A program made the position numbers and the translations under genes. The notes beneath the pieces were generated by a model that searched no databases, had not been told where the DNA came from, and was given only the letters and a program-made list of their open reading frames with translations. This document shows, piece after piece, positions 2,231 to 25,052 of a stretch of DNA of 29,385 bases. This DNA comes from Chlamydiota bacterium. Lineage in GTDB: Bacteria > Auribacterota > Tritonobacteria > UBA1439. Where the stretch lies: positions 1 through 29,385 of the forward strand of contig JBAXOY010000025.1 in NCBI GenBank assembly GCA_037133055.1, read 5' to 3'. Numbering within the stretch: position 1 is the stretch's first letter; each line of letters opens with the position of its first letter.

Positions 2231-3335
2231 ATGCTCGACGAACTGACGGAACGGCACAGGAAGCTCATGGAGGGGCTGCAAAAACTCGGAGACTATCTTT
2301 GACCTCGCTGCAAAGCGGAAGGAGATGTTCGAGCTCGAGGGGAAGATAGGCAGGCCGGACTTCTGGAACGACCAGGCGGGGGCCCGGACCGTCACCGAAC
2401 TGCTCTCGAGGATCAGGGAGGCCGTCGAATCCTGGGAGAAGCTGAAGAGGGACGCCGAGGACCTCGGCGTCTTCTTCGAACTCGTCAGGGCGGAGGGGGA
2501 CGAGGGGTCCGCGCCCGACCTCGCGAAGGACCTCGAGAAGGTCGAGGGCGAGTACCGCGATCTCGAGCTCAGGTCGATGCTTGGAGACCCCCGCGACCGG
2601 TCCGGCGCGATCATGATGATACACGCCGGGGCGGGGGGCACCGAGGCCTGCGACTGGGTCACTATGCTTCTAAGAATGTACCGGCGATGGGCGGAGGGAC
2701 GCGGATACGCGGCGGAGGTCCTTGACATGGCCCCGGGCGAAGAGGCGGGGTTCCGCAGCGTCACGCTCTCGGTCAAGGGCGACTACGCCTACGGGTACCT
2801 CAAGGCGGAGCAGGGGGTGCACCGGCTCGTGAGGATCTCTCCGTTCGACTCGGCCAAGCGCCGGCACACCTCCTTTGCCTCCGCGGACGTGGTGCCGGAG
2901 GTGGAGGGCGAGCTGGAGGTCGAGATCAAGGACGACGACCTCAGGGTCGACACCTTCCGGGCGCACGGGGCCGGCGGCCAGCACGTCAACAAGACCGACT
3001 CCGCGGTGCGCATGACGCACATCCCCACCGGGATCGTGGTGCAGTGCCAGAACGAGCGCTCGCAGTACAAGAACCGGGTGACCGCGATGCGCGTCCTCAT
3101 CGCCCGCGTCGCCGAGCACTACCGCCGGATCAAGGACGAGGAAATGGCGAAGGAGCGCGGCGAGAAGCAGGATATCGCATGGGGAAGCCAGATCCGCTCC
3201 TACGTCTTCCAGCCGTACCAGATGGTCAAGGACCACCGGACAAAGCACGAGTCGGGGAACGTCCAGGCCGTGATGGACGGGGAGATTCAGCCGTTCATCG
3301 AGGCATTTCTCAGGGGCGGGGGGAAGGGGGAATAG
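2231..3335 (+). CDS. prfB: Peptide chain release factor 2, join(2231..2299,2301..3335) by +1 frameshift, about 367 aa
   Basis: A 23-codon first ORF (MLDELTERHRKLMEGLQKLGDYL) ends in CTT TGA C. The +1 frame continues into the 2325..3335 ORF, which has SPF ('RISPFD') and GGQ ('GAGGQHVN') motifs. Confidence 0.97.
2288..2303 (+). promoter_or_regulatory. RF2 autoregulatory +1 programmed ribosomal frameshift site
   Basis: GGAGAC TAT CTT TGA C: an internal SD-like GGAG followed by the canonical CTTTGAC slip site at 2297-2303. Confidence 0.93.
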
Positions 3336-3374
3336 CCGTATCGGCGTGTGGGCGTATCAGCGTGAGGGCGTGTG
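3335..3374 (+). repeat. Degenerate 8-bp tandem array, 5 units, directly after the prfB stop
   Basis: GCCGTATC GGCGTGTG GGCGTATC AGCGTGAG GGCGTGTG. Confidence 0.75.
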
Positions 3375-3411
3375 CGAATGGAAGGAGATGACGGCCCGGG
3401 GCAAATATCGT

Positions 3412-3441
3412 TTGCCCGGCGGAAGTGTGGTGCGTTACAAT
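3412..3441 (+). promoter_or_regulatory. Putative sigma70 promoter for the small gene at 3481
   Basis: TTGCCC (3412-3417), 18 bp spacer, TACAAT (3436-3441). The -35 overlaps the inverted repeat GGGCAAA-N5-TTTGCCC (3399-3417). Confidence 0.5.
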
Positions 3442-3480
3442 CAGCGACGCCACGCAGGGGGAAGCCGAATGGAGGATCCG

Positions 3481-3912
3481 ATGAACAGGGGACGGTGTAT
3501 CGCGGCGATCATGCTATGCACGTTCGTCTGCGGGACGGCATCCGCGACGTATCTCGACAACATCTCCCTCAAGATTGACAGGGGGTTCTCGAACGCGCTC
3601 GGATGCTGGCTGGAGATCCCGTACCAGACCTACGCGACGGCGAAGGAGAAGGGGATCATCGCGGGAGGGCCGATGGGGCTCGGCAAGGGGGCCCTGATGC
3701 TGCCCTGCCGTCTCGTCTCCGGCGCCCTCGACATCGCCACCTTCCCCGCGCCCTGCCCGCGGTCGGGCTGGAACGGGTTGATGGAGCCCCAGTACAACCC
3801 GTGGGTCGAGCAGCCGGACCAGGCGGGGCCCGGGACTCAGCCCGCCGCGGGGCAGCCCATCGTGGAACAGCCCGCCCCGCCCCCGGCCGAGCGGCCCGGC
3901 CAGGCGCCGTGA
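3481..3912 (+). CDS. Small secreted/membrane protein resembling the putative exosortase-associated TIGR04073 family (143 aa)
   Basis: SD GGAGG at 3471-3475 before ATG 3481. Signal-peptide-like N-terminus, pattern 'KIDRGFSNALGCWLEIP...GLGKG...RLVSGALDIATFP...MEPQY', and a Pro/Gln-rich tail. The family call is from recalled pattern only. Confidence 0.6.
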   Translation: MNRGRCIAAIMLCTFVCGTASATYLDNISLKIDRGFSNALGCWLEIPYQTYATAKEKGIIAGGPMGLGKGALMLPCRLVSGALDIATFPAPCPRSGWNGLMEPQYNPWVEQPDQAGPGTQPAAGQPIVEQPAPPPAERPGQAP

Positions 3913-3943
3913 AGGAGTTCCCGGGGCCCGAACGGATGTGAAC

Positions 3944-3982
3944 AAAGGCGCGCGGGCGCGGGAAACGCCTGTGCGCCTTTTT
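3944..3982 (+). terminator. Intrinsic terminator-like hairpin
   Basis: AAAGGCGCGCGGGCG (3944-3958) pairs with CGCCTGTGCGCCTTT (3966-3980): 15 bp with two G-U pairs, a 7-nt loop, and a T run at 3978-3982. Confidence 0.75.
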
Positions 3983-4020
3983 CATCGCGAAGGTGATTGC
4001 GCAACAGAGGTAACGCACGC

Positions 4021-5538
4021 ATGGAAACCGAGGATCTGTACGGGCAGCGCCTCGAGAAGCTCGCGCGCCTTCTCGAGAAGGGCGCCGGGGTCTATCGGGA
4101 GGGGTTCCCCTCGCGGCAGCCCATCGGGTTCGCTGTGGCGCAATTCTCCGAAGGGAAGGAGACGCGCCTCGCGGGAAGGATCACCTCGCTCAGGGGGCAC
4201 GGCAAGGCGGTCTTCGCGGACCTGCGGGACGGGACCGGTCGGATCCAGCTCTACCTCAAGAAGGACACACTCCCCGGGGACGCCTTCGACCTGGTGGCTC
4301 TGCTCGATCTCGGCGACATCATCGGCGTCCGCGGATCGTTCTTCGTCACCCGCACGGGCGAAAAGACGCTCGAGGTGAAGGAGATCGCGGTCCTCTCGAA
4401 GGCGCTCCGCGAGCCCCCGCTCGGCAAGACCAAGGAAGGGAAGCACTGGTACACCCTCGCCGACGTGGAAACGCGCTACCGGCAGCGGTACCTCGACCTG
4501 ATGGCGAACGAGGAGTCGATGCGCATCTTCATGGTCCGGAGCCGCATCGTCCGGGGCATCAGGGCGTTCCTCGACGCGCGCGGCTTTCTCGAGGTGGAGA
4601 CCCCGATGATGCAGCCGCTTCCCGGGGGCGCCGCGGCACGGCCGTTCGTGACGCACCACCGCGCCCTTGACACCGACCTGTACCTCCGCGTGGCGCCGGA
4701 GCTGTACCTGAAGCGGCTGCTCGTGGGCGGGTTCGAGAAGATCTACGAGCTCAACCGCAATTTCCGCAACGAGGGCATCTCGACGCGGCACAATCCCGAG
4801 TTCACGATGCTCGAGCTCTACCAGGCATTCGCGGATTACCGGGATATCATGGCGCTCGTCGAGGAGATGACGGTCTCTCTCGCCGATTCGGTGCTGGGGG
4901 CGCGCACCCTGCAGTATCGCGGGAAGGAGATATCCCTCGCGCCGCCGTGGCCCAGGGTGCCGCTCCTCGAAGCGATCCGCGAGCGCACCGGAGAGGATCT
5001 TTCTCCCGAGAAGGGCGAGGCCTCCGCGGCCGCGGCCGCGGCGCGGCTGAATCTCGCGATCGAGGGGCCGAAGACGTACGCCAAGATCGTGGACGAGGCG
5101 GTGAAGAGCTTCGTGGTGCCCACGCTCATCGCGCCGACCTTTCTCATCGACCATCCCGTCGCCCTCTCCCCGCTCGCCAGGAAGAAGGCGGACAACCCGC
5201 TCCTTGCCGAGCGGTTCCAGCCGTACATCGGCGGCATCGAGGTCGGGAACGCCTTCTCGGAGCTGAACGACCCCCTGGACCAGCGGGAGCGGTTCGAGGC
5301 GCAGCTCGCCGCGAGGGGCCGCGGGGACGAGGAGGCGCACCGGATGGACGAGGACTTCATCAGGGCGCTCGAATACGGGATGCCCCCGGCGGGGGGGCTC
5401 GGGATCGGCGTCGACCGGCTGGTGATGCTCTTCACGGGGGCCGAGTCGATCCGGGACGTGATCCTCTTCCCCCAGCTGAAGCCGGAGGCAAAGACGCCTG
5501 ACATCCGCACGAACGCCATCCCCCGGAAGGATGAGTGA
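4021..5538 (+). CDS. lysS: Lysine--tRNA ligase (class II)
   Basis: OB-fold N-terminus, 'RYRQRYLDL', 'FLEVETP', 'GGAAARPF', 'FRNEG', 'HNPEF', 'GLGIGVDRL'. SD GAGGT at 4007-4011 favours ATG 4021. Confidence 0.98.
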   Translation: METEDLYGQRLEKLARLLEKGAGVYREGFPSRQPIGFAVAQFSEGKETRLAGRITSLRGHGKAVFADLRDGTGRIQLYLKKDTLPGDAFDLVALLDLGDIIGVRGSFFVTRTGEKTLEVKEIAVLSKALREPPLGKTKEGKHWYTLADVETRYRQRYLDLMANEESMRIFMVRSRIVRGIRAFLDARGFLEVETPMMQPLPGGAAARPFVTHHRALDTDLYLRVAPELYLKRLLVGGFEKIYELNRNFRNEGISTRHNPEFTMLELYQAFADYRDIMALVEEMTVSLADSVLGARTLQYRGKEISLAPPWPRVPLLEAIRERTGEDLSPEKGEASAAAAAARLNLAIEGPKTYAKIVDEAVKSFVVPTLIAPTFLIDHPVALSPLARKKADNPLLAERFQPYIGGIEVGNAFSELNDPLDQRERFEAQLAARGRGDEEAHRMDEDFIRALEYGMPPAGGLGIGVDRLVMLFTGAESIRDVILFPQLKPEAKTPDIRTNAIPRKDE

Positions 5539-6773
5539 GGGCATCGTGAGAATGCCGTTCGAGATGTTCGTCAGTCTCCGCTACCTCAAGGCGAAGCGCA
5601 AGCACCGCTTCATCTCCTTCATCTCCTTCATCTCGGTGGCGGGGGTCGCCCTGGGCGTGATGGCGCTCATCGTGGTGCTCGCGGTGATGAGCGGCTTCGA
5701 GCGGGACATGAAGGAGAAGGTGATCGGCGTCTACTCGGAGCTGAACATCCAGGAGCGGAGCGTGATGCACGGCTGGCAGGACGTGGTCAAAAAGGCGGAA
5801 CTCGTCCCCAACGTCGTGGCGGCGAGCCCCTACATCCTCGGGCAGGTGATCGTCCGGGCGCCGCGGCAGGCGCGCGGCGTCGTGGTGCGGGGGATCGAGC
5901 CCGCGGGTGAGGGGAGGACCACCTCGCTCAAGAAATTCATCGCCCAGGGAACCCTCCTCGCCGGCGGCCCCGGCATCCTGGTGGGCGAGGAGCTCGCGAA
6001 GGACATGGGGCTCGACGTCGGCGACGGGGTGAAGCTCGTCTCCCCGGTGGAGATGGACACCCCCGCAGGCCCGGTGCCGGTGGTCCTCGACCGGGTGATC
6101 GCCGGCATCTTCGACTCCGGGATGTATGAGTACGACTCCTCGCTCATCTACGCAGACCTCGACACCGCCCAGAAGCTGTTCCGGTTTGCCGGCGGAGTCC
6201 ACGGCGTGAGCGTCCGGATCAGGGACCTCGATCTCACCGACCGCGTCAAGGCGGAACTCAAGGCGAAGTTCCCGTTCCCGTACGTGGTGACAAGCTGGAA
6301 GGAGAAGAACCCGGGCCTCTTCGCCGCGGTCAACATGGAGAAGAAGGTCATGTTCATCATCGTGGCGCTCATCGTGCTGGTCGCGGCCCTGAACATCGCG
6401 AGCACCCTGATCATGGTGGTCATGGAGAAGACGAAGGATATCGGCATCCTCAAGGCGATCGGGGTCAGGCCGCTGAGCATCATGGCCATTTTCACGGCGG
6501 AGGGGGCGATCATCGGCACCACCGGCGCCCTCATCGGCACGGTCGCGGGCTGGCTCTTCGCCGAGTATATCAACCCGATCGCGGACTTAGTCGGCTGGCT
6601 CACCGGCTTCCAGCTTTTCCGGAGCGACATCTACTATCTGGACCGGATCCCGGCCGATCTCTCCTGGACGCGCATCGCCATGACCGCCGCCGTCGCGCTC
6701 GCCCTGAGCACGATCGCGGCGCTCTATCCGGCATGGAAGGCGTCGAGGCTCGATCCCGTGGAGGCGCTGCGCT

Positions 6774-6781
<8 letters not shown>
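5531..6781 (+). CDS. lolE: Lipoprotein-releasing ABC transporter permease, LolC/E family (start may be ATG 5552)
   Basis: '[19 protein letters not shown]', 'VLAVMSGFE', '[13 protein letters not shown]', '[18 protein letters not shown]'. Adjacent to a lolD-like ATPase. Confidence 0.92.
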
Positions 6782-7469
<688 letters not shown>

Positions 7470-7481
<12 letters not shown>

Positions 7482-7522
7482 AAGTCAAGTTCTCACCGCG
7501 GAGAGCACGGGGGATCACTGGG
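7470..7522 (+). repeat. Composite junction repeat: a 7-bp array spanning the lolD stop, then a CACGGAG-family module
   Basis: GTTGAAA GTTAAAA GTCAAG (7470-7489), then TTCTCACCGCGGAGAGCACGG (7490-7510), which is 20/21 identical to 14446-14466. Confidence 0.7.
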
Positions 7523-7584
7523 GAAACCAGAAAAGGCCTTTTCAAATCCGGGGGATGGTCTCCCGTAGTCTTCCGATTAGGCTG

Positions 7585-7614
7585 TTGACACCGAAAAGAG
7601 ATTTCGGCTATTGT
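7585..7614 (+). promoter_or_regulatory. Sigma70 promoter for ilvE with a palindrome in the spacer
   Basis: TTGACA (7585-7590), 18 bp spacer, TATTGT (7609-7614). The spacer holds CCGAAA-N5-TTTCGG (7591-7607). Confidence 0.65.
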
Positions 7615-7653
7615 GGTGCTGTTCGCGCGCGCCTTTTCCACCGGAGAGAACAG

Positions 7654-8520
7654 ATGAAGATTTACATCAACGGAAAATTCTACTCCAAGTCGGAGGCCAA
7701 GATCTCCGTCTACGACCACGGTTTTCTCTACGGGGACGGTGTCTTCGAGGGGATCCGCGCCTACCAGGGCAGGATATTCAGGCTCCAGGAGCACGTCGAC
7801 AGGCTCTTCAAGAGCGCGCACACGATCATGCTCACCATGCCGATGACCCGGGAGGAGATGGTCGAGGCCGTCGCGGCGACCGTCAGGGAAAACGGCCTGA
7901 AAGATGCCTATATCCGGCTCGTCGTCACGCGCGGAGTCGGCGCGCTTGGCCTGAACCCGTTCAACTGCGAGACACCGCAGATCGTCATCATCGCGGACAA
8001 GATTGTTCTCTATCCTAAGGCATTCTACCAGAATGGATTGGGAGTCGTCACGGTCCCCACCCAGCGGAATCTCGGCGAGGCGGTCAACCCGCGGATAAAG
8101 TCCCTGAATTACCTGAACAACATCATGGCCAAGATCGAGGCGATCAACGCGGGCGTCCACGAGGCGATCATGCTGAACACGTACGGCTATGTCGCCGAGT
8201 GCACCGGCGACAATCTCTTCATCGCCAGCAAGGGCATGCTCCTCACCCCGGCCCTCTACATGGGGGTCCTCGAGGGGATCACCCGCGACGAGATCATCGC
8301 CCTCGCCGCGCGGAACGGGATCGAGGTCAGGGAGACCGTGCTCACCCGGCACGACATTTTCAACGCCGACGAGTGTTTCCTCACCGGCACCGCCGCGGAG
8401 ATCATTCCCGTCGTCAAGGTCGATGGCCGTGTCATCGGCAACGGAAAGCCCGGCCCGATGACGAAGCGCCTGATGGCGGATTTTCACGAGCTGGTGCGCA
8501 AGGAAGGATTCCCGATCTGA
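7654..8520 (+). CDS. ilvE: Branched-chain amino acid aminotransferase (class IV PLP enzyme), 288 aa
   Basis: 'ISVYDHGFLYGDGVFEGIRAY', 'FRLQEHVDRL', PLP Lys in 'RIKSLNYLNNI', 'LEGITR', 'ADECFLTGTAAEIIPV'. GGAG lies before ATG 7654. Confidence 0.95.
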   Translation: MKIYINGKFYSKSEAKISVYDHGFLYGDGVFEGIRAYQGRIFRLQEHVDRLFKSAHTIMLTMPMTREEMVEAVAATVRENGLKDAYIRLVVTRGVGALGLNPFNCETPQIVIIADKIVLYPKAFYQNGLGVVTVPTQRNLGEAVNPRIKSLNYLNNIMAKIEAINAGVHEAIMLNTYGYVAECTGDNLFIASKGMLLTPALYMGVLEGITRDEIIALAARNGIEVRETVLTRHDIFNADECFLTGTAAEIIPVVKVDGRVIGNGKPGPMTKRLMADFHELVRKEGFPI

Positions 8521-8525
8521 ATCAT

Positions 8526-8648
8526 GGAGGGAAGATCCCTGAGCCGGAGAGGGGGGGATCCGGAGATCCGGGGAAAAATCAAAGCCTTAAAGCTCCCCCC
8601 TTCCCCGGCTCCCCGATTCCCCGGCTCTTCCCTCCCCCCGTCCCCGAT
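8526..8648. repeat. Fold-back element with an 8-bp TCCCCGNN tandem array
   Basis: Outer inverted repeat GGAGGGAAGA (8526-8535) / TCTTCCCTCC (8626-8635). Inner inverted repeat CCGGGGAA (8568-8575) / TTCCCCGG (8601-8608). Units TCCCCGGC TCCCCGAT TCCCCGGC (8602-8625) and TCCCCGAT (8641-8648). Confidence 0.75.
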
Positions 8649-8658
8649 GTGATATACT
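8648..8658 (+). promoter_or_regulatory. Extended -10 promoter (TRTGnTATACT) for mcsA-mcsB-clpC
   Basis: TGTGATATACT at 8648-8658, SD AGGAG at 8677-8681, ATG at 8693. Confidence 0.65.
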
Positions 8659-9269: not shown

Positions 9270-9314
9270 CACAGAGGTCACAGAGGTCACAGAGGTCACA
9301 GAGGTCACAGGGGG
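9270..9314 (+). repeat. Perfect 9-bp tandem repeat (CACAGAGGT)x4 plus a variant fifth unit
   Basis: CACAGAGGT at 9270, 9279, 9288 and 9297, then CACAGGGGG at 9306. Confidence 0.95.
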
Positions 9315-9420
9315 CGCGGGGGTATACGCGCTGGCGTGTGGCACAGATGAACGCAGGCTGCGGCAACCGGTGTGTAGCTGTGGTGAACGTAAGAGCTGTC
9401 TCTCTTCCTGGGGCTTAGAT

Positions 9421-10512
9421 ATGGGCATCGAGATATTGCTGAAGCGGGACGCCGAGTGGCTCAAGGGCGAGGGGCCGGACGCCAGGATAGTCGTGAGCAG
9501 CCGCGTCCGGTTCGCGCGGAACCTGCGCGGCTTCACCTTCCCCGGGCGGGCCGACGCGCAGACCCGCATCCGGGTGCGGGACAGCGTCGGGAAGGCCATC
9601 GAGGGCAGCCGCCTCATGCAGGGCTCTCTCACGGTCCGCCTCGACGAGATCGGGGAGCTCGACAGGCAGTTCCTGGTCGAGCGGCACCTGAGCAGCCGGG
9701 AGCACGCCCGGGGCGACGAGGGGAGCGCGCTCGTGGTCGGCGACCAGGAGATCCTGAGCATCATGGTGAACGAGGAGGATCACTTGCGCATCCAGACCCT
9801 TCGCTCCGGCTTCCAGCTCGGCAGGGCCATCGAGGAGATCAGCGAACTTGACGATGAGCTGGAAGAGCAGCTCGAGTACGCGTTTCTCCCCACGGTCGGT
9901 TACCTCACCTCGTGCCCGACGAACGTCGGCACGGGCTTGCGGGCCTCCGTCATGATGCATCTGCCCGGGCTGGTCATCGCCAACCAGATCAACCAGGTCC
10001 TCCAGGCGATCGCGAAGCTCGGGCTGGCGGTGCGGGGCCTGTACGGGGAGGGGACGGAGGCGTCCGGGAACCTGTTCCAGATCTCGAACCAGGTCACCCT
10101 CGGCATGTCGGAGGAGGACATCGTCGACAACCTCGGGAAGGTGATACGCCAGATCGTCGAGCACGAGAAGAAGGCCCAGCAGGCGCTCTTCAAGAGGAGC
10201 CTGAAGGCGCTCGAAGACCGCGTCTACCGGGCCCACGGGCTGCTCACCGGCGCCCGCATCATCACCTCGAAGGAGACGATCGAGCTCCTGTCGGCACTGA
10301 AGCTCGGCCTCGACTTCCACCTGATCGGCCTCGACCTCGGGACGATCAACGAGCTCTTCATCGTCACCCAGCCCGCCCACCTGCAGAAGCTCGCCGGAAA
10401 GGAACTGAAGCCCGAGGAGCGGGATATCTTCAGGGCCGACCTCGTGCGGAGCAGACTGGGGGAGGGCCGTCAAAATCCCAAATCCCAAATCCCAAATCCC
10501 AAAGAGGAGTAG
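9421..10512 (+). CDS. mcsB: Protein-arginine kinase McsB, 363 aa
   Basis: 'IVVSSRVRFARN', 'LVERHLSS', 'MVNEEDHLRIQ', 'GYLTSCPTNVGTGLRASVMMHLP', 'VRGLYGEG', 'QISNQVTLG', 'QPAHLQ'. Family-like sequence begins at ATG 9421, not at the ORF-track start 8698. Confidence 0.96.
   Translation: MGIEILLKRDAEWLKGEGPDARIVVSSRVRFARNLRGFTFPGRADAQTRIRVRDSVGKAIEGSRLMQGSLTVRLDEIGELDRQFLVERHLSSREHARGDEGSALVVGDQEILSIMVNEEDHLRIQTLRSGFQLGRAIEEISELDDELEEQLEYAFLPTVGYLTSCPTNVGTGLRASVMMHLPGLVIANQINQVLQAIAKLGLAVRGLYGEGTEASGNLFQISNQVTLGMSEEDIVDNLGKVIRQIVEHEKKAQQALFKRSLKALEDRVYRAHGLLTGARIITSKETIELLSALKLGLDFHLIGLDLGTINELFIVTQPAHLQKLAGKELKPEERDIFRADLVRSRLGEGRQNPKSQIPNPKEE
10473..10503 (+). repeat. (AAATCCC)x4+AAA heptamer array inside the 3' end of mcsB
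   Basis: Four perfect units, translated as QNPKSQIPNPK, ending immediately before the clpC SD (GAGGAG 10504-10509). Confidence 0.95.
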
Positions 10513-13009: not shown

Positions 13010-13045
13010 CCTATAGGTCTTATAGGCCCTATAGGACCTGCAGGA
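13010..13045. repeat. 9-bp tandem array of palindromic octamers
   Basis: CCTATAGGT CTTATAGGC CCTATAGGA CCTGCAGGA. Confidence 0.9.
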
Positions 13046-13052: not shown

Positions 13053-14504
13053 GTGAAAGAAGCCAGGACAAAGCCGGTCTTCGTGTGCAGCGCCTGCGGG
13101 CGCGAGTCGACGCGGTGGCTCGGGAAATGCCCCGGCTGCGACGCGTGGAACACGCTTGAGGAGGAGCTCCCCCGGGCAAAGGCGCCGCGCCGGGCCGCGG
13201 CGCCGCGCCGGGCCGCAAGGCCGCTCGACGGGGACGCGGGTGCTCCGCAGGCGCGCGAACGCTTCCCGACGGGGATGGCCGAGTTCGACGGGCTCCTGGG
13301 CGGCGGGATCGTGCCCGGCTCGTTCGTCCTCATCGGGGGCGAGCCGGGGATCGGGAAGTCCACCCTCATGCTCCAGGTCGCGTCGTGCCTCGCGAAGAAG
13401 GGCGTCCGGGTCCTCTACGTGAGCGCCGAGGAGTCGTTCGAGCAGACCGGGATGCGCGCGAAGCGCGTCGGGGCCTCCGCGGAGAGCCTGTTCATCCTCT
13501 GCGAGCCGGACGTGACCGCCATCATCGAGGAGGCCCGGACGCTCAAGGCGGCGGTCGTGGTGGTCGATTCCATCCAGATCATTTACCATCCGGATGTCCC
13601 CTCCTCGCCCGGCAGCGTGAACCAGGTGCGGGAATGCGCGAGCGCGCTCATGCAGGCCGCGAAGGGGGAGGGGGTGAGCGTTTTCGTCGTCGGGCACGTG
13701 ACGAAGAGCGGGGACATCGCGGGCCCGCGGATGCTCGAGCACATGGTGGACACGGTGCTCTACTTCGAGGGGGACCGGTACCACAGCTACCGCGTGCTGC
13801 GCACGCAGAAAAACCGCTTCGGGTCCACGGAGGAGGTGGGGATCTTCTCGATGGGGCCGGAGGGGCTGAGGGAGGTCGGCGACCCGTCGAAACTGTTTCT
13901 CGAGGAGCGCCGGGCTGAAAACGCCGGGAGCGTGGTGACGCCCTCGATGGAGGGGACGCGTCCGATTCTCGTGGAGATACAGGCGCTCGTCGGCGCCCGG
14001 TGCTACGGCGTCCCGCAGCGGAGGAGCGTCGGGGTGGACTACAACCGGCTGTGCATGCTGCTCGCCGTGCTCGAGACGCGGGCGGGCGTGAACCTTCGCG
14101 ACCGGGACGTCTTCGTGAGCGTGGCGGGAGGCCTCGCCGTGGACGAGCCGGCCATCGATCTCGCGATCGCGCTCGCGCTCGCCTCGAGCCTCACGGGGAA
14201 CGCGGTGCCCGCCGACCTTGTCGCGATAGGGGAGGTCGGGCTCGGGGGAGAGCTCCGCGGCTGCCGGCACCTGGCGCGGCGGATCAAAGAGGCGGCGAAG
14301 CTCGGATTCGCGAGGGCGCTCGTGCCGCGCTCGGTCGCGGAGGCGGAGGGGGGCACGCACGGCCTGACGCTTATCCCGTGCGACACGGTCCAGGAAGCGA
14401 TCAGGGCGGTGCTGAAAGAGGGAAAAACGAAAAATAACGCGCACATTCTCACCACGGAGAGCACGGAGCACACGGAGAAATTGGACGCGGATCGCCGCGG
14501 ATGA
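13053..14504 (+). CDS. radA: DNA repair protein RadA/Sms
   Basis: C4 Zn finger (CSAC...CPGC), Walker A GEPGIGKST, 'VVDSIQ', 'GHVTKSG', KNRFG motif, and a Lon-like C-terminal domain 'GEVGLGGELR'. GTG start after GGAG. Confidence 0.97.
   Translation: MKEARTKPVFVCSACGRESTRWLGKCPGCDAWNTLEEELPRAKAPRRAAAPRRAARPLDGDAGAPQARERFPTGMAEFDGLLGGGIVPGSFVLIGGEPGIGKSTLMLQVASCLAKKGVRVLYVSAEESFEQTGMRAKRVGASAESLFILCEPDVTAIIEEARTLKAAVVVVDSIQIIYHPDVPSSPGSVNQVRECASALMQAAKGEGVSVFVVGHVTKSGDIAGPRMLEHMVDTVLYFEGDRYHSYRVLRTQKNRFGSTEEVGIFSMGPEGLREVGDPSKLFLEERRAENAGSVVTPSMEGTRPILVEIQALVGARCYGVPQRRSVGVDYNRLCMLLAVLETRAGVNLRDRDVFVSVAGGLAVDEPAIDLAIALALASSLTGNAVPADLVAIGEVGLGGELRGCRHLARRIKEAAKLGFARALVPRSVAEAEGGTHGLTLIPCDTVQEAIRAVLKEGKTKNNAHILTTESTEHTEKLDADRRG
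13181..13216 (+). repeat. Exact 18-bp in-frame tandem duplication in the radA linker
   Basis: GGCGCCGCGCCGGGCCGC x2, encoding APRRAA twice. Confidence 0.85.
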
Positions 14505-14569
14505 ACGCGGATTACGGTTTGAACCGCTTGAACAAAGCCTTTCACCACGAAGGCGCGCAGGACACGAAG
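14446..14569 (+). repeat. Composite array of four different tandem modules across the radA stop
   Basis: CACGGAG x3 (14453, 14462, 14471; period 9); CGCGGAT x3 (14486, 14496, 14506; period 10); TTGAAC x2 (14519, 14528); CACGAAG / CGCGCAG / CACGAAG (14546, 14554, 14563). Confidence 0.9.
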
Positions 14570-14588: not shown

Positions 14589-15365
14589 GTGGACGTGGTG
14601 GCAATCATCGTGGCGGCAGGGATGGGGAGGAGGATGGGGGACAAACCCAAGGCCCTCCTCGACCTGGGAGGGAAACCGCTCCTCTGCCGTTCACTGGATG
14701 TTTTTCAGGCCTCGCCCCTCATCGACGGAATAGTCGTCGCCGTGCCCCCGGGGATGCGCTCCATGTTCAGGGACGAGTTCGCGCCCCTCCGGGGGTATTC
14801 CAAGATCGTCGCATGGGTCGAGGGCGGCGCGCGGAGGCAGGACTCGGTGGCCGCGGCGCTCGAAGCTGTCCCCGCCGATGCGAAATTCATCGCGGTGCAC
14901 GATGCCGCCCGGCCGTGCGTGACCGGGGACCTCATCCGCCGCGTGGTCGAGGCCGCTCGCGAAAAGGGAGCCGCCATCCCCGGGATCAAGGTCGTGGATA
15001 CGATAAAGGAAATCGGCGAGGCGGGCGTCGTGGTGCGCTCGCCCGCGCGCGAGCGGCTCCGGGCGGTGCAGACGCCGCAGGTCTTCTCCGCCGACCTCCT
15101 CAGGAAGGCGTATCGCGCCGTCGAGGAGAAGGGGATCACGGTGACGGACGACGCGTCGCTCGTGGAGCGGCTCGGGCATCCGGTCATGGCGGTGGAGGGG
15201 CACCGGGACAACATAAAGATCACCGTGCCCGGGGACATCCAAAGAGCGGAGGGGATATTGAAATCCCGAATCCAAAATCCCGAATCCCAAAAGAAAATGG
15301 ACGACGGAATTCAGGCGGGGGAAAAGGCGTGCTCTCAACGCGGCATGAGGCGGAAGAAGAGATGA
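14589..15365 (+). CDS. ispD: 2-C-methyl-D-erythritol 4-phosphate cytidylyltransferase
   Basis: 'AAGMGRRMG..PK', 'GGARRQDSV', 'VHDAARP', 'DTIK', 'VQTPQVF', 'TDDASLVE', 'NIKIT.P.D'. Confidence 0.96.
   Translation: MDVVAIIVAAGMGRRMGDKPKALLDLGGKPLLCRSLDVFQASPLIDGIVVAVPPGMRSMFRDEFAPLRGYSKIVAWVEGGARRQDSVAAALEAVPADAKFIAVHDAARPCVTGDLIRRVVEAAREKGAAIPGIKVVDTIKEIGEAGVVVRSPARERLRAVQTPQVFSADLLRKAYRAVEEKGITVTDDASLVERLGHPVMAVEGHRDNIKITVPGDIQRAEGILKSRIQNPESQKKMDDGIQAGEKACSQRGMRRKKR
15261..15291 (+). repeat. Degenerate AAATCCC-family heptamer array x4 in the 3' end of ispD
   Basis: AAATCCC GAATCCA AAATCCC GAATCCC AAA, translated as KSRIQNPESQK. Confidence 0.88.
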
Positions 15366-19224: not shown

Positions 19225-19258
19225 GGTTTTTCGCTGATTCCGACAGGGGGCTTGCTCT

Positions 19259-20077
19259 ATGCACAGGGTCGTCGAGGTGCGGCTCAGGGAATCGGGCCGG
19301 GTGCACTACTACAACTGCGGCGAGGAGTCCTACCCGGCGGGGGACTACGTGATCGTCGAGGCGGACCGGGGCGAGGATTACGGGCTCGTCATGACCGAGC
19401 CGGAGACGATTCTCGACAGCGAGGCGGAGCAGCCGCTCCGGAACATCGTGCGGCGCCTGAGCCCCGCCGACGAGGAGCGCATCGCCGGGAACTGCCGCGA
19501 GGGGCGGACGGCGATGGAGACCTGCGGCGCCAAGATCGCCGAGCGGAAGCTCCCGATGAAGCTGATCGACGCCGAATACTCCTTTGACCGCTCGAAGATC
19601 ATCTTCTACTTCACGGCCGAGGGCCGCGTCGATTTCCGCGAGCTCGTGCGCGACCTCGCCTCGCACTTCAAGGCCCGCATCGAGCTCCGGCAGATCGGCG
19701 TCAGGGACGAGGCCCGGATGCTGGGGGGGATCGGCTGCTGCGGCCGCCAGCTCTGCTGCGCCACCTTCCTCAAGGATTTCGATGCGGTCAATATCCGCAT
19801 GGCGAAGGAGCAGCGGCTCCCCTTGAACCCGAGCAAGATCTCCGGGCTGTGCGGACGGCTCCTCTGCTGCCTCCGCTACGAGTTCGAGGCGTACAAGGAG
19901 CTGCAGCGCGGGATGCCGAAGGAGGGGACGGTCGTCACCACGCCCCTCGGCGAGGGGCGCGTCAAAGACGTGAACCTGCTCAAGCAGTCCGTGGGCGTCG
20001 AGCTCGAGAACGGCCGGATCGCCCAGGTGGCGGTGAAGGACATCAGCCGGCCGAAGGGGAGAAAACCGAAGGCATGA
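19259..20077 (+). CDS. ricT: PSP1-domain protein (RicT/YaaT family)
   Basis: 'FYFTAEGRVDFRELVRDLA', 'RIELRQIGVRDEA', 'GCCGRQLCC', 'MAKEQ', 'KISGLCGRLLCCLRYE'. Confidence 0.93.
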   Translation: MHRVVEVRLRESGRVHYYNCGEESYPAGDYVIVEADRGEDYGLVMTEPETILDSEAEQPLRNIVRRLSPADEERIAGNCREGRTAMETCGAKIAERKLPMKLIDAEYSFDRSKIIFYFTAEGRVDFRELVRDLASHFKARIELRQIGVRDEARMLGGIGCCGRQLCCATFLKDFDAVNIRMAKEQRLPLNPSKISGLCGRLLCCLRYEFEAYKELQRGMPKEGTVVTTPLGEGRVKDVNLLKQSVGVELENGRIAQVAVKDISRPKGRKPKA

Positions 20078-21606
20078 AGGACACTTTTTTCCTCACCACG
20101 GCGATCGACTACGTCAACGCACTGCCCCACCTGGGGACCGCCTACGAGAAGATCGGGGCGGACGCCCTGGCGCGGTACATGCGGCTCAAGGGGGTGGAGA
20201 CGTTCTTTTTGATGGGGGTCGACGAGCACAGCGCGAACGTGGAAAAGCAGGCGCGCGAGCAAGGCCTGCCGCCCCGGGAGTACTGCGATGAGATGAGCGC
20301 AAAGTTCCTGGAGGTCTGGCGCCGCCTGGGGATATCGTGCGACCGGTTCATCAGGACCACGGAAGACGCGCACGTCTCGACGGTCCGGGAGCTTTTCACG
20401 CGGATCCACCGCAAGGGGGAAATCTACAAGGCGAAGTACCGCGGCTGGTACTGCCTCTCCTGCGAGGCGTTCCTCAAGGACTCGGATCTCGAGGACGGGC
20501 TCTGCCCCACGCACGGGAAGAAACCGGAGTGGATCGAGGAGGATAACTACTTCTTCGCCCTCTCCCGCTACCAGGATGCGCTCCGGCGGCACATCGAGGA
20601 GCACCCTGAGTTCATCAGGCCGGAGATACGCCGGAACGAGATGGTGGGCCTCCTCTCCAAGGGACTCGACGACATCAGCGTCTCGCGCGCCGGGATCGAA
20701 TGGGGCATCCGCTGCCCGTTTGACGAGGACCAGGCGGTCTACGTATGGTTCGACGCCCTCATCAACTACGTTTCCGGGGCGGGGTTCTCCGACGACCCCG
20801 AGCGGTTTCCCCTCCGCTGGCCGGCGGACATCCACATCATCGGGAAGGACATCACCCGGTTTCACTGCCTTATCTGGCCGGCGATGCTCATGTCCGCGGG
20901 GTTGCCGCTTCCCCGGTCGGTCTGGGGGCACGGCTTCGTGCACCTCGGGGGAGAAAAAATGAGCAAGACCCGCGGGACGATGGTCGATCCCGTGGAACTC
21001 GCCGACGAATACGGCGCCGACGCCCTTCGCTACTTCCTCCTCAGGGAGGTGCCGTTCGACAGGGACGGAGAGTTCACCCCGGAGAAGTTCCGCGTGCGGT
21101 ACAGCGCGGACCTCTCGAACGACCTCGGCAACCTCTGCCAACGCACGCTCGTCCTTGTCGCGAAATACCTCGACGGCGCCGTTCCCTCGCCCTCTCCCGA
21201 CCAGGGGGGCGCGGACGGGGAGCTACGCTCCGCACTCCTCGGCGCCGCGCAGCCGTTCCGCGAGGAGATGGAGTCGCTGCGCTTCAGCCAGGCGCTCGAG
21301 AAGATCTGGGCGGTGGTGGGGCGCTGCAACCGCTACATCGACGAGTCCGCCCCGTGGAAACTCCGCAAGGACCCCGGGAGCGCCGCGAGATTCGCGGGGG
21401 TCGTCTACAACCTCTGCGAGGCGCTGCGGATACTCTCGGTGCTCGTCTCCCCGTTCATGCCGGCGACCGCGTCGGCGATGCGGGCCCAGCTCGGACTCCC
21501 GGCGGAGCTGAAACCCGGAGCGCTGGACGAGGCCGGGCGGTTCGGCCTGATCGAGGCCGGCACGCGCCTGGGAGAGGTGAAGGCGCTGTTCCCGAGGAAA
21601 GAGTGA
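20074..21606 (+). CDS. metG: Methionine--tRNA ligase, short form without the C-terminal tRNA-binding domain, 510 aa
   Basis: 'TTAIDYVNALPHLGTAY', 'DEH', 'FIRTT', Zn knuckle CLSC...CPTH, 'YVWFDALINY', 'GKDITRFH', KMSKT, 'DLSNDLGNL'. ATGA overlap with the PSP1 stop. Confidence 0.97.
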   Translation: MKDTFFLTTAIDYVNALPHLGTAYEKIGADALARYMRLKGVETFFLMGVDEHSANVEKQAREQGLPPREYCDEMSAKFLEVWRRLGISCDRFIRTTEDAHVSTVRELFTRIHRKGEIYKAKYRGWYCLSCEAFLKDSDLEDGLCPTHGKKPEWIEEDNYFFALSRYQDALRRHIEEHPEFIRPEIRRNEMVGLLSKGLDDISVSRAGIEWGIRCPFDEDQAVYVWFDALINYVSGAGFSDDPERFPLRWPADIHIIGKDITRFHCLIWPAMLMSAGLPLPRSVWGHGFVHLGGEKMSKTRGTMVDPVELADEYGADALRYFLLREVPFDRDGEFTPEKFRVRYSADLSNDLGNLCQRTLVLVAKYLDGAVPSPSPDQGGADGELRSALLGAAQPFREEMESLRFSQALEKIWAVVGRCNRYIDESAPWKLRKDPGSAARFAGVVYNLCEALRILSVLVSPFMPATASAMRAQLGLPAELKPGALDEAGRFGLIEAGTRLGEVKALFPRKE

Positions 21607-21631
21607 ATCGCCGATGAACTGGCGCCCCGTT

Positions 21632-21662
21632 TTTGGGATTTGGGATTTGGGATTTGGGATTT
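21632..21662 (-). repeat. TTT(GGGATTT)x4, the exact reverse complement of 10473-10503
   Basis: Four perfect GGGATTT units at 21635, 21642, 21649 and 21656, ending 7 nt before the tatD ATG. Confidence 0.95.
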
Positions 21663-21669
21663 CCCTCGC

Positions 21670-22512
21670 ATGCTGATCGACACGCACGCCCACCTCACGG
21701 ATCCCCGCTTCGCCGGGGACCTCGACGCGGTTCTGAGACGCGCCGGGGAGGCGGGCGTGGGGGCGATTCTGGACGTCGGCGACAGCGCCGCGAGCTCCGC
21801 ATCCTGCGTCGGGCACGCGCGAAGCTGCGCAGGAGTCTTTGCCGCGGTGGGCATACACCCCAACAACGCGGCGGAGGCTGAGCCCGGGGATCTCGATCGG
21901 ATCGCTGAGCTTGCCCTCGACGGCCGGGTCGCGGCGCTCGGCGAGACCGGGCTCGACTATTACCGGCGGCGCTCGCCGCGCGAAGCCCAGGAGCGGATCT
22001 TCCGCGGGACGCTGGACCTCGCACTCGGGACGGGGCTCCCGGTCGTCATGCATTGCCGGGATGCCTACGCCGCCCTGATCGGGGTGCTCGGCGAGGCGCG
22101 GTACGCGGGGATCCGCGGCGTGGTGCACTGCTTTTCGGGAACGGGAAACGACGCGGAGGCGATCGTCGGGCTCGGGCACTCCCTGTCCGTCGGCGGGCCG
22201 CTGACGTATCCGTCTAACGCCGGACTCAGGGACACGGTGCGCGCCGCGCCGATCGGGCGGATACTCGTCGAGACGGATTGCCCCTATCTTCCCCCCGAGG
22301 GGGAGCGCGGAAAGAGGAACGAGCCGGCGCTCGTCGCGCGGGTGGCGGACGATCTGGCCCGCCTCCGGGGGGTATCTCCCGGCGAGATCGCGCGGATCAC
22401 CACCGAGAACGCCCTGCGCCTGTTCACGAGGATGGGGGCGGCAGTGCGAACCGGCGATACTCTAATCTCCAAAGTCGCCCGCTCGCCCTTTCGCCCATTC
22501 ACCGGCTCATGA
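21670..22512 (+). CDS. tatD: TatD-family deoxyribonuclease
   Basis: 'MLIDTHAHL', 'GIHP', 'ALGETGLDYY', 'MHCRDA', 'VVHCFSG', 'LVETDCPYL', 'NEP', 'TTENA..LF'. Follows metG as in many bacteria. Confidence 0.95.
   Translation: MLIDTHAHLTDPRFAGDLDAVLRRAGEAGVGAILDVGDSAASSASCVGHARSCAGVFAAVGIHPNNAAEAEPGDLDRIAELALDGRVAALGETGLDYYRRRSPREAQERIFRGTLDLALGTGLPVVMHCRDAYAALIGVLGEARYAGIRGVVHCFSGTGNDAEAIVGLGHSLSVGGPLTYPSNAGLRDTVRAAPIGRILVETDCPYLPPEGERGKRNEPALVARVADDLARLRGVSPGEIARITTENALRLFTRMGAAVRTGDTLISKVARSPFRPFTGS
22475..22506 (+). repeat. Degenerate 8-bp array in the 3' end of tatD
   Basis: TCGCCCGC TCGCCCTT TCGCCCAT TCACCGGC, with a weak complementary arm at 22431-22458. Confidence 0.75.
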
Positions 22513-22543
22513 TACGGTATCGTAAAAAGGAAGAAAGTCAGGG

Positions 22544-23413
22544 ATGAGTGCAGTAAGCTCACTGAAAGGCCGCAGCCTCTGGCGCCAGGCCTGGCGGAGG
22601 CTGCTCGCCAACCGGATGGCGGTCGCGGGAGGCATCGTGGTCATCGTCATGGCCGCGCTCGCGCTGGCGGCGCCGCTCGTGAGCCCCTGCGGGTATGACG
22701 AGACCTCCCCGGAGCAGTACAGCCCCCCCTCGCGGCATCACCCGATGGGGACGGACATCCACGGGCGCGACTTGCTCACGCGGGTGCTCTACGGGGCACG
22801 GCTGTCGCTGGGGGTGGGGCTCGTCGCCACGGTGGTGAGCCTGGTGATCGGCGTCGGGTACGGCGCCGTCTCGGGCTACGCGGGAGGGAAGACCGACGAG
22901 GTCATGATGCGCGTCGTGGACATCATCTACTCGCTTCCGTACATGTTCTTTGTCATCATCCTCGTGGCCGTTTTCGGGAGGAGCGTGCTGCTCCTCTTCC
23001 TCGCGCTGGGGGCGGTGCAGTGGCTCACCGTGGCGCGCATCGTGCGGGGACAGGTCCTCTCGATCAAGGAGAAGGAGTTCATCCAGGCCGGGTACGCGAT
23101 CGGCGCGGGGCACGCGCGGATCATCGTCCACCACCTCCTGCCGAACGTGCTCGGGCCGGTGGTGGTGTACATGACCCTGACGGTTCCCGCGGTCATGCTC
23201 CAGGAGGCGTTCCTGAGTTTTCTGGGGCTCGGGGTGCCGCCGCCCGCGAGCTCGTGGGGCACGCTTATCGCCGACGGCGCATCCGCGATCAACGCGCTGA
23301 GGATCTACTGGTGGCTCCTGTTTTTCCCTGGCGCGGCGATGGCGGCGACGCTCTTCGCGATGAACTTCCTCGGGGACGGGCTCCGCGACGCGATCGACCC
23401 GCAACTGAGGTAG
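22544..23413 (+). CDS. oppC: Oligopeptide/dipeptide ABC transporter permease (OppC/DppC type)
   Basis: 'SLWRQAWRRLLANRMA', 'HPMGTDIHGRDLLTRVLYGARLSL', EAA-like loop 'KEKEFIQAGYAIGA', 'EAFLSFLGLG', 'GDGLRDAIDP'. Confidence 0.9.
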   Translation: MSAVSSLKGRSLWRQAWRRLLANRMAVAGGIVVIVMAALALAAPLVSPCGYDETSPEQYSPPSRHHPMGTDIHGRDLLTRVLYGARLSLGVGLVATVVSLVIGVGYGAVSGYAGGKTDEVMMRVVDIIYSLPYMFFVIILVAVFGRSVLLLFLALGAVQWLTVARIVRGQVLSIKEKEFIQAGYAIGAGHARIIVHHLLPNVLGPVVVYMTLTVPAVMLQEAFLSFLGLGVPPPASSWGTLIADGASAINALRIYWWLLFFPGAAMAATLFAMNFLGDGLRDAIDPQLR

Positions 23414-23419
23414 AAAAGA

Positions 23420-23444
23420 GCCGGACCGGTTTGACCCGTCCGGC
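23420..23444 (+). terminator. Hairpin after oppC (possible terminator or processing stem)
   Basis: GCCGGAC / GTCCGGC outer stem plus GGT / ACC inner stem. No U-tract on +. Confidence 0.4.
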
Positions 23445-23472
23445 GCGTTCCCGCCGTCGCGTCCGAACGATA

Positions 23473-23504
23473 TTGCATATACGGCGGCCCTTATGTAGTA
23501 TACT
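23473..23504 (+). promoter_or_regulatory. Putative sigma70 promoter for the GGDEF gene
   Basis: TTGCAT (23473-23478), 17 bp spacer, TAGTAT (23496-23501), overlapping TATACT (23499-23504). SD GAGGTGG lies before ATG 23522. Confidence 0.6.
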
Positions 23505-23521
23505 GGCGAAAGAGGTGGAAG

Positions 23522-24376
23522 ATGATTCCTCAGCGCTCGTTGTGGGAAAAGATGTTCCTGTTCATCGTGAGCATGCTGTTTGCGCTCGTGCTCGCGTTCA
23601 ATCTCCCCCAAAACACGCTTAGCCTGAGTTTTTTCATCATCCCGATCATCCTCGCGGCGAGCTACTACGGGCTTCCCGGGGGGCTCGGCTGCGCTGTCCT
23701 GAGCGCCGCCCTCGCCGCCGCCATCGCGCAGCGGTCCGGTATGATGCTGAAGGACCCGCAGCTCCTTCCGCAGATAATCCTCTATTTTCTCGTGGGAGGC
23801 TTCGGGGGGTTCATGCAGCAGGAGCAGAACCGCATCCAGCGGATGTTCCATCTCTCCTCGATCACCGACGAGCTGACCGGTCTCTACAACTACCAGCACT
23901 TCCGCACGCGCCTCGATGAAGAGGTCCGCCGCGCCAAGCGCTACGGCCACCCGCTCTCCCTCCTTATGTGCGATATCAACCAGTTCAAGCGCTACAACGA
24001 CACCTACGGCCACATGAACGGCAACTTCATCCTCAACAAGACCGCCAGCCTCATCAAAGACTCCATTCGCGAGAGCGATATACCCTTTCGCTACGGCGGC
24101 GACGAGTTCGCGGTCATCCTCCCGGAGACCGGCATGGATGCGCAGGGGGTCGCGGAGCGGATCGTCAAAGCCGTCAACTCCGCGTTCTCGCCCCAGAAGG
24201 GCGATCCGACAATGCGGCCGAGCATCACCGCGGGCGTGGCGGCACGGGACGCCGAGCGGCCGCTCTCCGCGTCCCTCCTCATCTCGTTCGCAGACCAGGC
24301 CCTTTACAAGGCGAAAACCTCCGGCGCGCCGTTCGCGATATTCAGAGTCGGCGACCCGGCCGTCGAAAAGGACTAG
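23522..24376 (+). CDS. Membrane-anchored GGDEF-domain protein (diguanylate cyclase family)
   Basis: About 4 hydrophobic N-terminal segments, 'TDELTGLYN', 'CDINQFKRYNDTYGH', I-site RESD, 'RYGGDEFAVILP', 'ADQALYKAK'. Confidence 0.93.
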   Translation: MIPQRSLWEKMFLFIVSMLFALVLAFNLPQNTLSLSFFIIPIILAASYYGLPGGLGCAVLSAALAAAIAQRSGMMLKDPQLLPQIILYFLVGGFGGFMQQEQNRIQRMFHLSSITDELTGLYNYQHFRTRLDEEVRRAKRYGHPLSLLMCDINQFKRYNDTYGHMNGNFILNKTASLIKDSIRESDIPFRYGGDEFAVILPETGMDAQGVAERIVKAVNSAFSPQKGDPTMRPSITAGVAARDAERPLSASLLISFADQALYKAKTSGAPFAIFRVGDPAVEKD

Positions 24377-24390
24377 GGTCGCCCCCCCCC

Positions 24391-25005
24391 GTGAATCGCC
24401 TCCACCCGTCCGCCGCTCCGCCGCCGCACGCGCGCACCGTCATCCTTGCCTCGCGCTCGAAGGCGCGCCGGGCCCTGCTCCGGCAGCTCGGGCTCAGCTT
24501 CCGCACGGCGGTTTCCCGCGTGGAAGAGGGGGGTGCGCATCGCCGCGGCTGCGCCGCGCTGGTCGTCTCGAACGCGCGCAGGAAAGCCCTGGACGTGGCG
24601 CGAAGGCGCCGGTCGGGAGTGGTCATCGCGGCCGACACCGTCGTCTCGGCGGGCGGGAAAATCATCGGCAAGCCGGCAAATCTCGCCGAAGCGCGAGCGA
24701 CGCTGAAACTCCTCTCGCGGCGCCCCCAATGGGTCCACACCGGCATCGCGGTCGTCGATGTCGACCGGGGCAGAACCTACACCGCGCGGGAGAAGACGAG
24801 GGTCGTCATGCGGCCCATGAGCGACCGCGAGATCAGCCGGTACTTCGGGAGGGTGTCCCCCCTCGACATGGCGGGGAGCTTTGATATCCAGGGGCTCGGG
24901 GCCGTGTTCGTCACGCGCGTGGAGGGGTGTTACTTCAACGTGGTCGGGCTCCCGCTTGCCGCGCTCTCCCGGCTCCTCCGCAGGGCCGGGATCGAGATCC
25001 CCTGA
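24391..25005 (+). CDS. maf: Maf-family nucleoside triphosphate pyrophosphatase (start uncertain; GTG 24391 chosen)
   Basis: 'ILASRSKARRALL', 'NARRKA', 'AADTVV...IIGKP', 'AGSFDIQG', 'EGCYFNVVGLP'. Confidence 0.9.
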   Translation: MNRLHPSAAPPPHARTVILASRSKARRALLRQLGLSFRTAVSRVEEGGAHRRGCAALVVSNARRKALDVARRRRSGVVIAADTVVSAGGKIIGKPANLAEARATLKLLSRRPQWVHTGIAVVDVDRGRTYTAREKTRVVMRPMSDREISRYFGRVSPLDMAGSFDIQGLGAVFVTRVEGCYFNVVGLPLAALSRLLRRAGIEIP

Positions 25006-25018
25006 CCGCCTTTGAGAG

Positions 25019-25052
25019 GTCGGACGGGTCCGACGAGTCAGACAGGTCGGAC
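25019..25052. repeat. 9-bp-period array of the interrupted palindrome GTCNGAC x4 between convergent genes
   Basis: GTCGGAC (25019), GTCCGAC (25028), GTCAGAC (25037), GTCGGAC (25046). Confidence 0.88.

Follow-up and report, generated by a model that had tools for sequence, protein, structure and literature searches.

The window analysed here, the entire 29,385-nucleotide contig JBAXOY010000025.1 (G000:C25) of the Chlamydiota bacterium assembly GCA_037133055.1, carries housekeeping genes, among them prfB, lolD, ilvE, mcsA, mcsB, clpC, radA, ispD, ispF, cysS, tatD and maf, and at many of their junctions stand arrays of short tandem repeat units. The host genome (G000; 2.99 Mb, 64% GC, 92% complete) was compared with two genomes of the same genus (G001 and G002) and five of the same family (G003 to G007), in all of which the locus is syntenic. 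All counts of location refer to our own dicodon model, with which 2634 genes were called. The gene names given in an earlier, sequence-only reading of the window agree with the best NCBIfam matches, with lolD, mcsA and maf falling below curated cut-offs and clpC lying outside the scan.

That reading had listed families of repeat units at 11 of the 24 junctions, and every listed unit is present where it was placed. With Tandem Repeats Finder (TRF, score >=30), 13 of the 24 junction zones prove to carry an array, whereas 200 dinucleotide shuffles average 0.74 such zones and never exceed 3. These 13 comprise 10 of the 11 junctions first listed and three weak ones (ispF–cysS, oppC and its next gene, and the last junction), which fall outside the listed unit families. 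The eleventh, lolD–ilvE, has no TRF match: its array at 7494-7510 consists of two decayed units, and its segment is the only one of the eleven not to recur elsewhere in the genome by BLAST (the other ten recur at 2 to 74 loci). We accept it as a putative array by homology alone, given that this junction in G003 holds a hairpin of its family in complete form. At a TRF score >=36, arrays are present at 7 of 24 window junctions versus 229 of 1895 co-oriented junctions genome-wide, which ranks the contig 9 of 67; the window is array-dense, yet neither unique nor exceptional in its genome. The statement that gene interiors are free of arrays holds for the middles of genes but not for their ends, as four arrays lie inside last codons (10473 in mcsB, 14453 in radA, 15261 in ispD and 22475 in tatD), all past the end of the family model. 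The ispD array begins where IspD homology stops (domain end at residue 223-225), 74 nt before the stop codon. McsB, RadA, IspD and TatD have repeat-derived C-terminal tails (window 10473-10512, 14453-14504, 15261-15365 and 22475-22512), and genome-wide 13 of 68 AAATCCC arrays are classed as interior.

Table 1. Repeat arrays of the window, with the cargo genes beside which related units were seen in host or relatives (units matched by eye).
Feature	Positions	Strand	Location	Support	Unit with cargo gene
GGCGTGTG-type 8-mer array, single left-type arm	3337..3371	+	shortly after prfB stop	TRF; 7 other loci	related unit, four-helix bundle, G003 (L076)
Decayed CACCGCGGAG/CACGG left arm and decayed right arm	7494..7580	+	lolD–ilvE	sequence; no TRF or BLAST support	
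Gene-less hairpin, GGGGAGCC-type left arm and TCCCCGNN right arm	8540..8640	+	ilvE–mcsA	TRF 8592-8638; fold z -2.33; 91-nt match at 81% elsewhere in genome	TCCCCG, four-helix bundle, G002 (L060)
CACAGAGGT x4.6, left arm	9270..9310	+	mcsA–mcsB	TRF	GxxExxY, G002 (L082)
CACAGAT/CGCAG 10-mer dimer, left arm	9342..9357	+		sequence	both GxxExxY genes of host genome
AAATCCC x4.4, single left arm	10473..10503	+	last codons of mcsB	TRF; unit at same site in G003, G006	four-helix bundle, G005 and G007 (L071)
CCTATAGG palindromic 9-mer array, self-pairing hairpin	13010..13039	+	clpC–radA	TRF; fold z -3.50	related units precede TIGR04258 genes, G008, G020 (L106, L105)
Mosaic of left arms	14453..14569	+	radA–ispD	TRF and sequence	
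Mosaic part: CACGGAG x3	14453-14479	+	radA last codons		CACAGAG/CACGGAG (L082, L078)
Mosaic part: CGCGGAT x3	14485-14512	+	spanning radA stop		CGCGGAT (L079, L081, L084)
Mosaic part: TTGAAC x2	14519-14533	+			
Mosaic part: CACGAAG x2	14546-14569	+			
AAATCCC-type x4.4, single left arm	15261..15291	+	extended ispD 3' end	TRF; same site in G005, G007	
GGGATTT x4.4 (reverse form), single right arm	21632..21662	+	7 nt before tatD start	TRF; four G-tracts	
Short GGCGA ... TCGCCCNN block	22448..22507	+	tatD last codons	TRF 22475-22496; 19 other loci, up to 65 nt	related unit (TCGCCC), four-helix bundles, G003, G007 (L072, L070)
GTCNGAC palindromic 9-mer array	25017..25056	.	convergent maf junction	TRF	related units flank TIGR04258 genes on the upstream side, G003, G020 (L108, L115)

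A family search found no four-helix-bundle or GxxExxY gene in the window, as had been stated from the sequence. The host genome has four PF05635 and two PF13366 genes, all outside the window, with TIGR02436 (113 bits) and TIGR04256 each confirmed for one of them; reverse transcriptase, DUF559, TIGR04258 and IS66 transposase (PF03050) genes were not found in this 92% complete genome. Inverted arrays bracket five of the six host cargo genes (judged by eye), and both GxxExxY genes are bracketed by the window's CGCAGAT word. Among G001 to G008 we read 44 cargo loci (28 of 49 PF05635 and 16 of 28 PF13366, with weak, partial and unfetched matches excluded), and in 35 of the 44 the two flanks pair at a score >=14, as compared to 21 of 1892 mismatched pairs. 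Paired arms also accompany 59 of 80 GTDB homologues, drawn from many phyla, of the host gene on contig C135. Overall, 8 of the 9 window unit families were seen with cargo in the host or its relatives (Table 1). The earlier statement that similar arrays flank such genes in other genomes is thereby borne out, as is the proposed link to a cassette of repeat, cargo and inverted repeat. Word type also follows cargo type in this sample (by eye): 7-8-mers mostly go with four-helix bundles, 9-10-mers with GxxExxY genes and palindromic 9-mers with TIGR04258 genes. One four-helix-bundle subfamily occupies the same tRNA-gene junction in seven genomes, its arm word differing (L052, L053, L054, L058, L065, L069 and G000:C49).

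Cassettes come and go at orthologous sites. For 33 occupied loci in G001 to G007, 19 could be mapped to 14 intact host junctions, some of which we take, from their translations, to be those of ilvN–ilvC, leuS and accA. In the host these 14 hold remnants of the same family (3), another family (2), another hairpin (1) or short clean spacers (8), and none holds cargo. At one junction G005 and G007 carry a gene with AAATCCC arms and G003 an AAATCCC hairpin without a gene; in the host, stop and start overlap there. The comparison of orthologous junctions that had been proposed thus yields occupied, gene-less and clean alleles. The window's own junctions have plain spacers in G001 and G002, and in other relatives either units from other families or again the word seen in the host (AAATCCC at the mcsB and ispD ends, Table 1), with different unit families at orthologous junctions in different relatives. 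A contig of about 95% coding identity fails to align across clpC–radA and radA–ispD, where spacer lengths differ (one contig). When metagenomes were scanned with IspD, a single identical fragment came up, all other matches being relatives at <=54%, and the scan yielded no strain-level alleles. In G003 the gaps ispF–cysS and cysS–tmk measure about 1.5 and 1.9 kb (L014 and L015); they are short in the host.

Genome-wide, AAATCCC arrays lie outside gene interiors in 55 of 68 cases, against a background of 25%, as do all 83 CGCRGAT dimers counted. The suggestion that operon junctions are targeted did not survive, and we rejected it: arrays are equally dense in co-oriented, convergent and divergent gaps (0.77, 0.67 and 0.72 per kb). 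At co-oriented junctions the forward word lies towards the stop codon, and the reverse complement towards the start of the next gene, for AAATCCC (forward 18/19 versus reverse 2/14, p 3e-6), CGCRGAT (49/60 versus 6/23, p 4e-6) and CACRGAG (24/25 versus 2/6, p 2e-3), where p values are uncorrected over 18 patterns tested; polarity is not significant for TTGAAC (p 0.11), TCGCCC (0.45), GGCGTRT (0.33) or both palindromic families. Over all gap types, the C-rich form of AAATCCC stands at the left edge in 19 of 21 cases and the G-rich form, GGGATTT, at the right edge in 19 of 23. This edge rule is strand-symmetric, which is the layout of inward-pointing arms of a gap-filling element.

A different reading of such placement is that the arrays, wherever they came from, are a domesticated cis-regulatory vocabulary: sites for protein binding, G-quadruplexes or RNase by which RNA ends or the coupling of translation would be tuned. 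The G-rich form sits shortly before starts (median 16 nt), and the four units seen in 52 of 68 AAATCCC arrays amount to four G-tracts, as in the heptamers covered by the available part of PMC4692102. For polarised TAACTGA repeats, PMC4679880 puts forward translational regulation. Site sharing between genera points the same way, in that AAATCCC is at the same gene end in the host for 18 of 58 AAATCCC ends of G003 and G007 versus a baseline of 128 of 4736 ends (2.7%), gene ends not being independent in this count. The comparison took in 60 regions (all listed G003 sites not already in the set and part of those of G007, with G005 unsampled), and 10 sites remained unmapped. Persistence of this kind points to selection, to conversion-based repair or to open sites having gained the word more than once. 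On the other side, the genus-mates G001 and G002 keep the operon with plain junctions and have 0 and 4 array matches versus 52-330 elsewhere (0 and 14 versus 123-302 in a second count). That they are nearly array-free with the operon intact speaks against a needed function. Orthologous junctions bear differing unit families, density is equal in all gap types, and arms are near 30 nt whatever the period (medians 28-35), so four 7-mer units need not mean a quadruplex. Families other than AAATCCC lack G-tracts, at a comparable array length. We regard the regulatory reading as unlikely on this mixed support; it and an origin as debris are not mutually exclusive.

Most arrays are single arms. Local folding beats shuffles at only two of the 11 window junctions (ilvE–mcsA and clpC–radA), and no pair of arrays on the contig within 1.5 kb would allow long-range pairing around housekeeping genes. 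Local hairpins were therefore rejected as the common form in the window, 9 of 11 junctions failing to beat shuffles, and the proposal that the arrays are as a rule ‘empty forms’ of a cassette does not hold, as most families occur mainly as single arms. Genome-wide, left, right and both arms number 17, 12 and 2 for AAATCCC, 24, 5 and 1 for CACRGAG, 32, 5 and 13 for CGCRGAT, and 24, 6 and 1 for TTGAAC. Arms also occur in company: at other junctions, stretches of the radA–ispD mosaic reaching 95 nt are found again as a block, with 85-90% identity. In 11 composites of CGCGGAT and TTGAAC, a CGCGGAT right arm is lacking within 500 nt in 9 and a TTGAAC right arm in all 11, and 9 of the 11 blocks follow the direction of the upstream gene. 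Copying of arm-only blocks is a simpler explanation than separate loss of the right half at every site, which is possible.

Short tandem units can expand by polymerase slippage, and a few arrays do reach 7-15 copies. As an origin, independent slippage at each site is nonetheless refuted by shared multi-family blocks, and we give it practically no credence: identical words, phase and flanking blocks occur at dozens of sites, as the earlier reading had argued from recurrence of families, and slippage would account neither for the orientation rule nor for inverted pairing around cargo. Copy number may still be adjusted in this way.

Another possible source of fixed-length modules is a dedicated, duplication-free writer, in which each cargo protein would recognise the word that belongs to it and would insert modules of about 30 bases, or lengthen them, at gene ends in trans, possibly via RNA. 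The AAATCCC arrays share a single phase and a fixed length, and their flanks are unrelated; at 57 of these 30-mers, target duplications do not exceed the null. Avd, a retroelement protein, is distantly related to the four-helix bundle (the C135 protein matches Avd weakly, E 1.3e-5, below cut-off), and GxxExxY belongs to a nuclease fold. The correspondence of word and cargo type, the excess of left arms and the orientation of the composite blocks would also suit a writer. Against these stand the strand symmetry of the AAATCCC edge rule and the gene content of the host, where no reverse transcriptase or TIGR04258 gene was found and none of the four four-helix-bundle genes has AAATCCC arms despite 68 AAATCCC arrays. 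On balance we consider such a writer rather unlikely.

One arm-bearing family outside the window, CAGGAG, has genuinely transposed, its ends being of the IS66/ISBst12 type and flanked by target duplications. Its cassette (G000:C135:447-890, L001) has a four-helix-bundle gene, and 22 internally deleted derivatives elsewhere in the genome retain the first and last codons of this gene at 82-92% identity; the gutted copies are 57-200 bp long with 8-bp target duplications (for example C44:19077-19260 and C84:4547-4746). The family has GTAAC ends, with 31 left ends of which 23 have a right end. Flanks of these 23 match at >=6 of 8 bases in 20 cases, including 8 perfect 8-bp duplications, versus 5 and 0 among 506 mismatched pairs. 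Among 64 terminal trinucleotides scanned, an excess was found only for GTA (15/87 versus 54/40347), and a generic scan for terminal inverted repeats with duplications of 5-11 bp revealed no other recurrent end. The element also occurs in G003, G006 and G007, which belong to other genera, where, among the loci read, 26 of 35 complete copies match at >=6 of 8 bases against a null of 19/1190 (8 left ends lacking a right end are excluded); it is absent from G001, G002, G004, G005 and G008. Its left end agrees with an end of ISDge4 at 13 of 14 bases, and ISDge4 is listed in the accessible part of PMC12898284 as an IS66-family element of the ISBst12 group with an 8-bp repeat. The gene-bearing C135 copy has a worn end and only 5 of 8 matching flank bases. 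IS66 elements in G007, G009 and G053 have ends related to those of CAGGAG, yet different. Four other small GTA-ended elements, whose 8-bp duplications are perfect and whose interiors are unrelated, lie at G000:C34:20919-20999, C34:23812-23914, C80:14284-14386 and C85:6359-6845.

Arm-bearing cassettes can thus transpose; the ends of this family do not account for the window. That an IS66/ISBst12 transposase moves all families, the window arrays being eroded MITEs (miniature inverted-repeat transposable elements), is a very improbable extension. Besides the CAGGAG family itself, it can draw on G009, where an IS66-type element abuts a second small element with similar ends (L029:1157-1346 and L038:604); the arms of this second element are of the CACCGC(A/G)GAG type, to whose family window 7494 belongs. 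For the window the extension is largely refuted, and IS66 ends were rejected as the general vehicle, since the window families lack such ends and duplications: no GTA-ended element with a duplication was found on contig C25, among the relatives' 44 cargo cassettes or among the 80 GTDB homologues of the C135 gene, and AAATCCC arrays have no duplication. At L119 (G017:C107, from another family of the phylum), an IS66-type end is followed by an apparently decayed four-helix-bundle gene.

Taken together, we consider it moderately probable that the window arrays are leftover or recopied arms of cassettes whose cargo has been lost, the arms having been copied by homology-driven recombination. They are likely selfish debris of a little-described mobile gene cassette, as opposed to purpose-built operon regulators. 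Cassettes of an arm, a small gene and an inverted arm would settle in gaps and come and go between relatives, as the alleles described above indicate. The cargo gene would then be lost by internal deletion, a step seen in the CAGGAG family outside the window and presumed for the others. Single arms and multi-family blocks would recur at unrelated gaps, as observed with fixed length and phase and no target duplication, through ectopic recombination or gene conversion between shared words of about 30 bases. Arms that land in last codons, where four are found in the window, would become a C-terminal tail that is probably tolerated.

Several observations weigh against this account. Since no cargo gene stands at a window junction in the relatives read (8 junctions, up to 8 genomes), decay in place is not demonstrated at any window site, and the 9-mer TTGAACCGC family was without cargo in the host and in the relatives' loci read. 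Left arms exceed right arms in several families (24:5, 32:5, 24:6), and this excess is tied to the direction of transcription, which a symmetric DNA process does not predict. The sharing of gene ends between genera and the four-unit preference are poorly explained by pure neutral debris, and the mechanism by which arms are copied is one that we infer.

Apart from the repeats, prfB starts at window 2232 and contains, at roughly 2297-2303, the site CTT TGA C, after which the long frame runs on (window 2232-2325); this is presumably the usual programmed +1 frameshift.

Cyanobacterial heptamer STRR (short tandemly repeated repetitive) sequences are a comparable system, and the small dispersed repeats of cyanobacteria are very short intergenic repeats that spread without an enzyme of their own, in single and inverted forms. 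Polarised intergenic heptamers are described for Xanthomonas (GGGAATC) and Nostoc (GGGGA(C/T)T) in the available part of PMC4692102, and TAACTGA heptamers of Beggiatoaceae in that of PMC4679880. Much like these, the host arrays are short, lie near stops and starts with an orientation tied to the gene end, include some inverted pairs and overlap last codons, and most AAATCCC arrays have four units. Unlike them, as far as those portions go, the host has at least nine co-existing families with periods of 7-10, arranged in mosaics and tied to cargo genes, and its polarity is opposite to that in Xanthomonas, with the C-rich form following the stop. The accessible text of PMC4692102 reports no general association of heptamers with mobile elements, and the terms ‘four helix’, ‘intervening’, ‘S23’ and ‘GxxExxY’ do not occur in that of PMC4679880. 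Repetitive extragenic palindromic (REP) sequences and REPINs with their REP-associated tyrosine transposases (RAYTs), in the part of PMC3116915 available, are also very short intergenic repeats that lack an enzyme of their own and occur in single and inverted forms; host units differ in being tandem words, not single palindromes. A RAYT partner was not found: none of eight Y1_Tnp genes is flanked by the window's words (by eye). These eight Y1 (HUH) transposase-like genes are on G000:C64, C17, C175, C88, C4, C11, C20 and C19 (L039-L046), and several are extended C-terminally and have their own short inverted ends. By the definition of MITEs in the consulted part of PMC3184786, and by comparison with ISDge4 in that of PMC12898284, the CAGGAG family resembles IS66/ISBst12 MITEs or passenger cassettes in its end, 8-bp duplications, lack of transposase and internal deletions. 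The window families do not, and the CAGGAG family is absent from the window.

The arrays bear on two separate puzzles, polarised heptamers without a known origin and a four-helix-bundle rRNA intervening sequence protein without a known function. In the genomes of this family the two meet at sites that can be pinpointed, where alleles with a gene, without one, with a single arm and clean ones are found and where the family of the word follows that of the cargo; this supplies named protein-word pairs and junctions for tests. If the arrays are only debris, they still explain a common source of spacer sequence and of C-terminal tails in core genes. In literature that covered few subscription journals, and with only part of each text available, we found no paper that joins tandem-word arms to four-helix-bundle or GxxExxY cargo outside rRNA, although cargo genes may be named among the neighbours in the tables of repeats in PMC4692102 and PMC4679880. 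Repeats and rRNA cassettes have been published separately, and a link between them did not turn up in that literature. Intervening sequences of 23S rRNA that bear an open reading frame encode S23p / PF05635 (PMC4990558, in the part available). Like these, the complete cassettes elsewhere in the host genome carry a four-helix-bundle gene in a loop closed by a stem of complementary termini, are sporadically distributed and have low-GC cargo; the window has no such gene between complementary termini. Unlike the intervening sequences as described there, host cassettes stand between protein genes or beside tRNA genes (the window arrays and the C135, C91 and C60 cassettes lie between or at the ends of protein genes, not inside 23S), have tandem-word arms, include GxxExxY and TIGR04258 cargo, and are mostly gene-less or single-armed. 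A bolder possibility, which we hold to be unlikely, is a widespread mobile system, not described so far, whose small proteins, four-helix-bundle or GxxExxY, would each know a 7-10-base word of their own and carry arms of about 30 bases to the ends of genes, with neither transposon ends nor target duplications involved. C-termini and operon junctions of core genes would be rewritten in the process, and the heptamer repeats of many bacteria and the ORF-bearing rRNA intervening sequences would be two faces of this one system.

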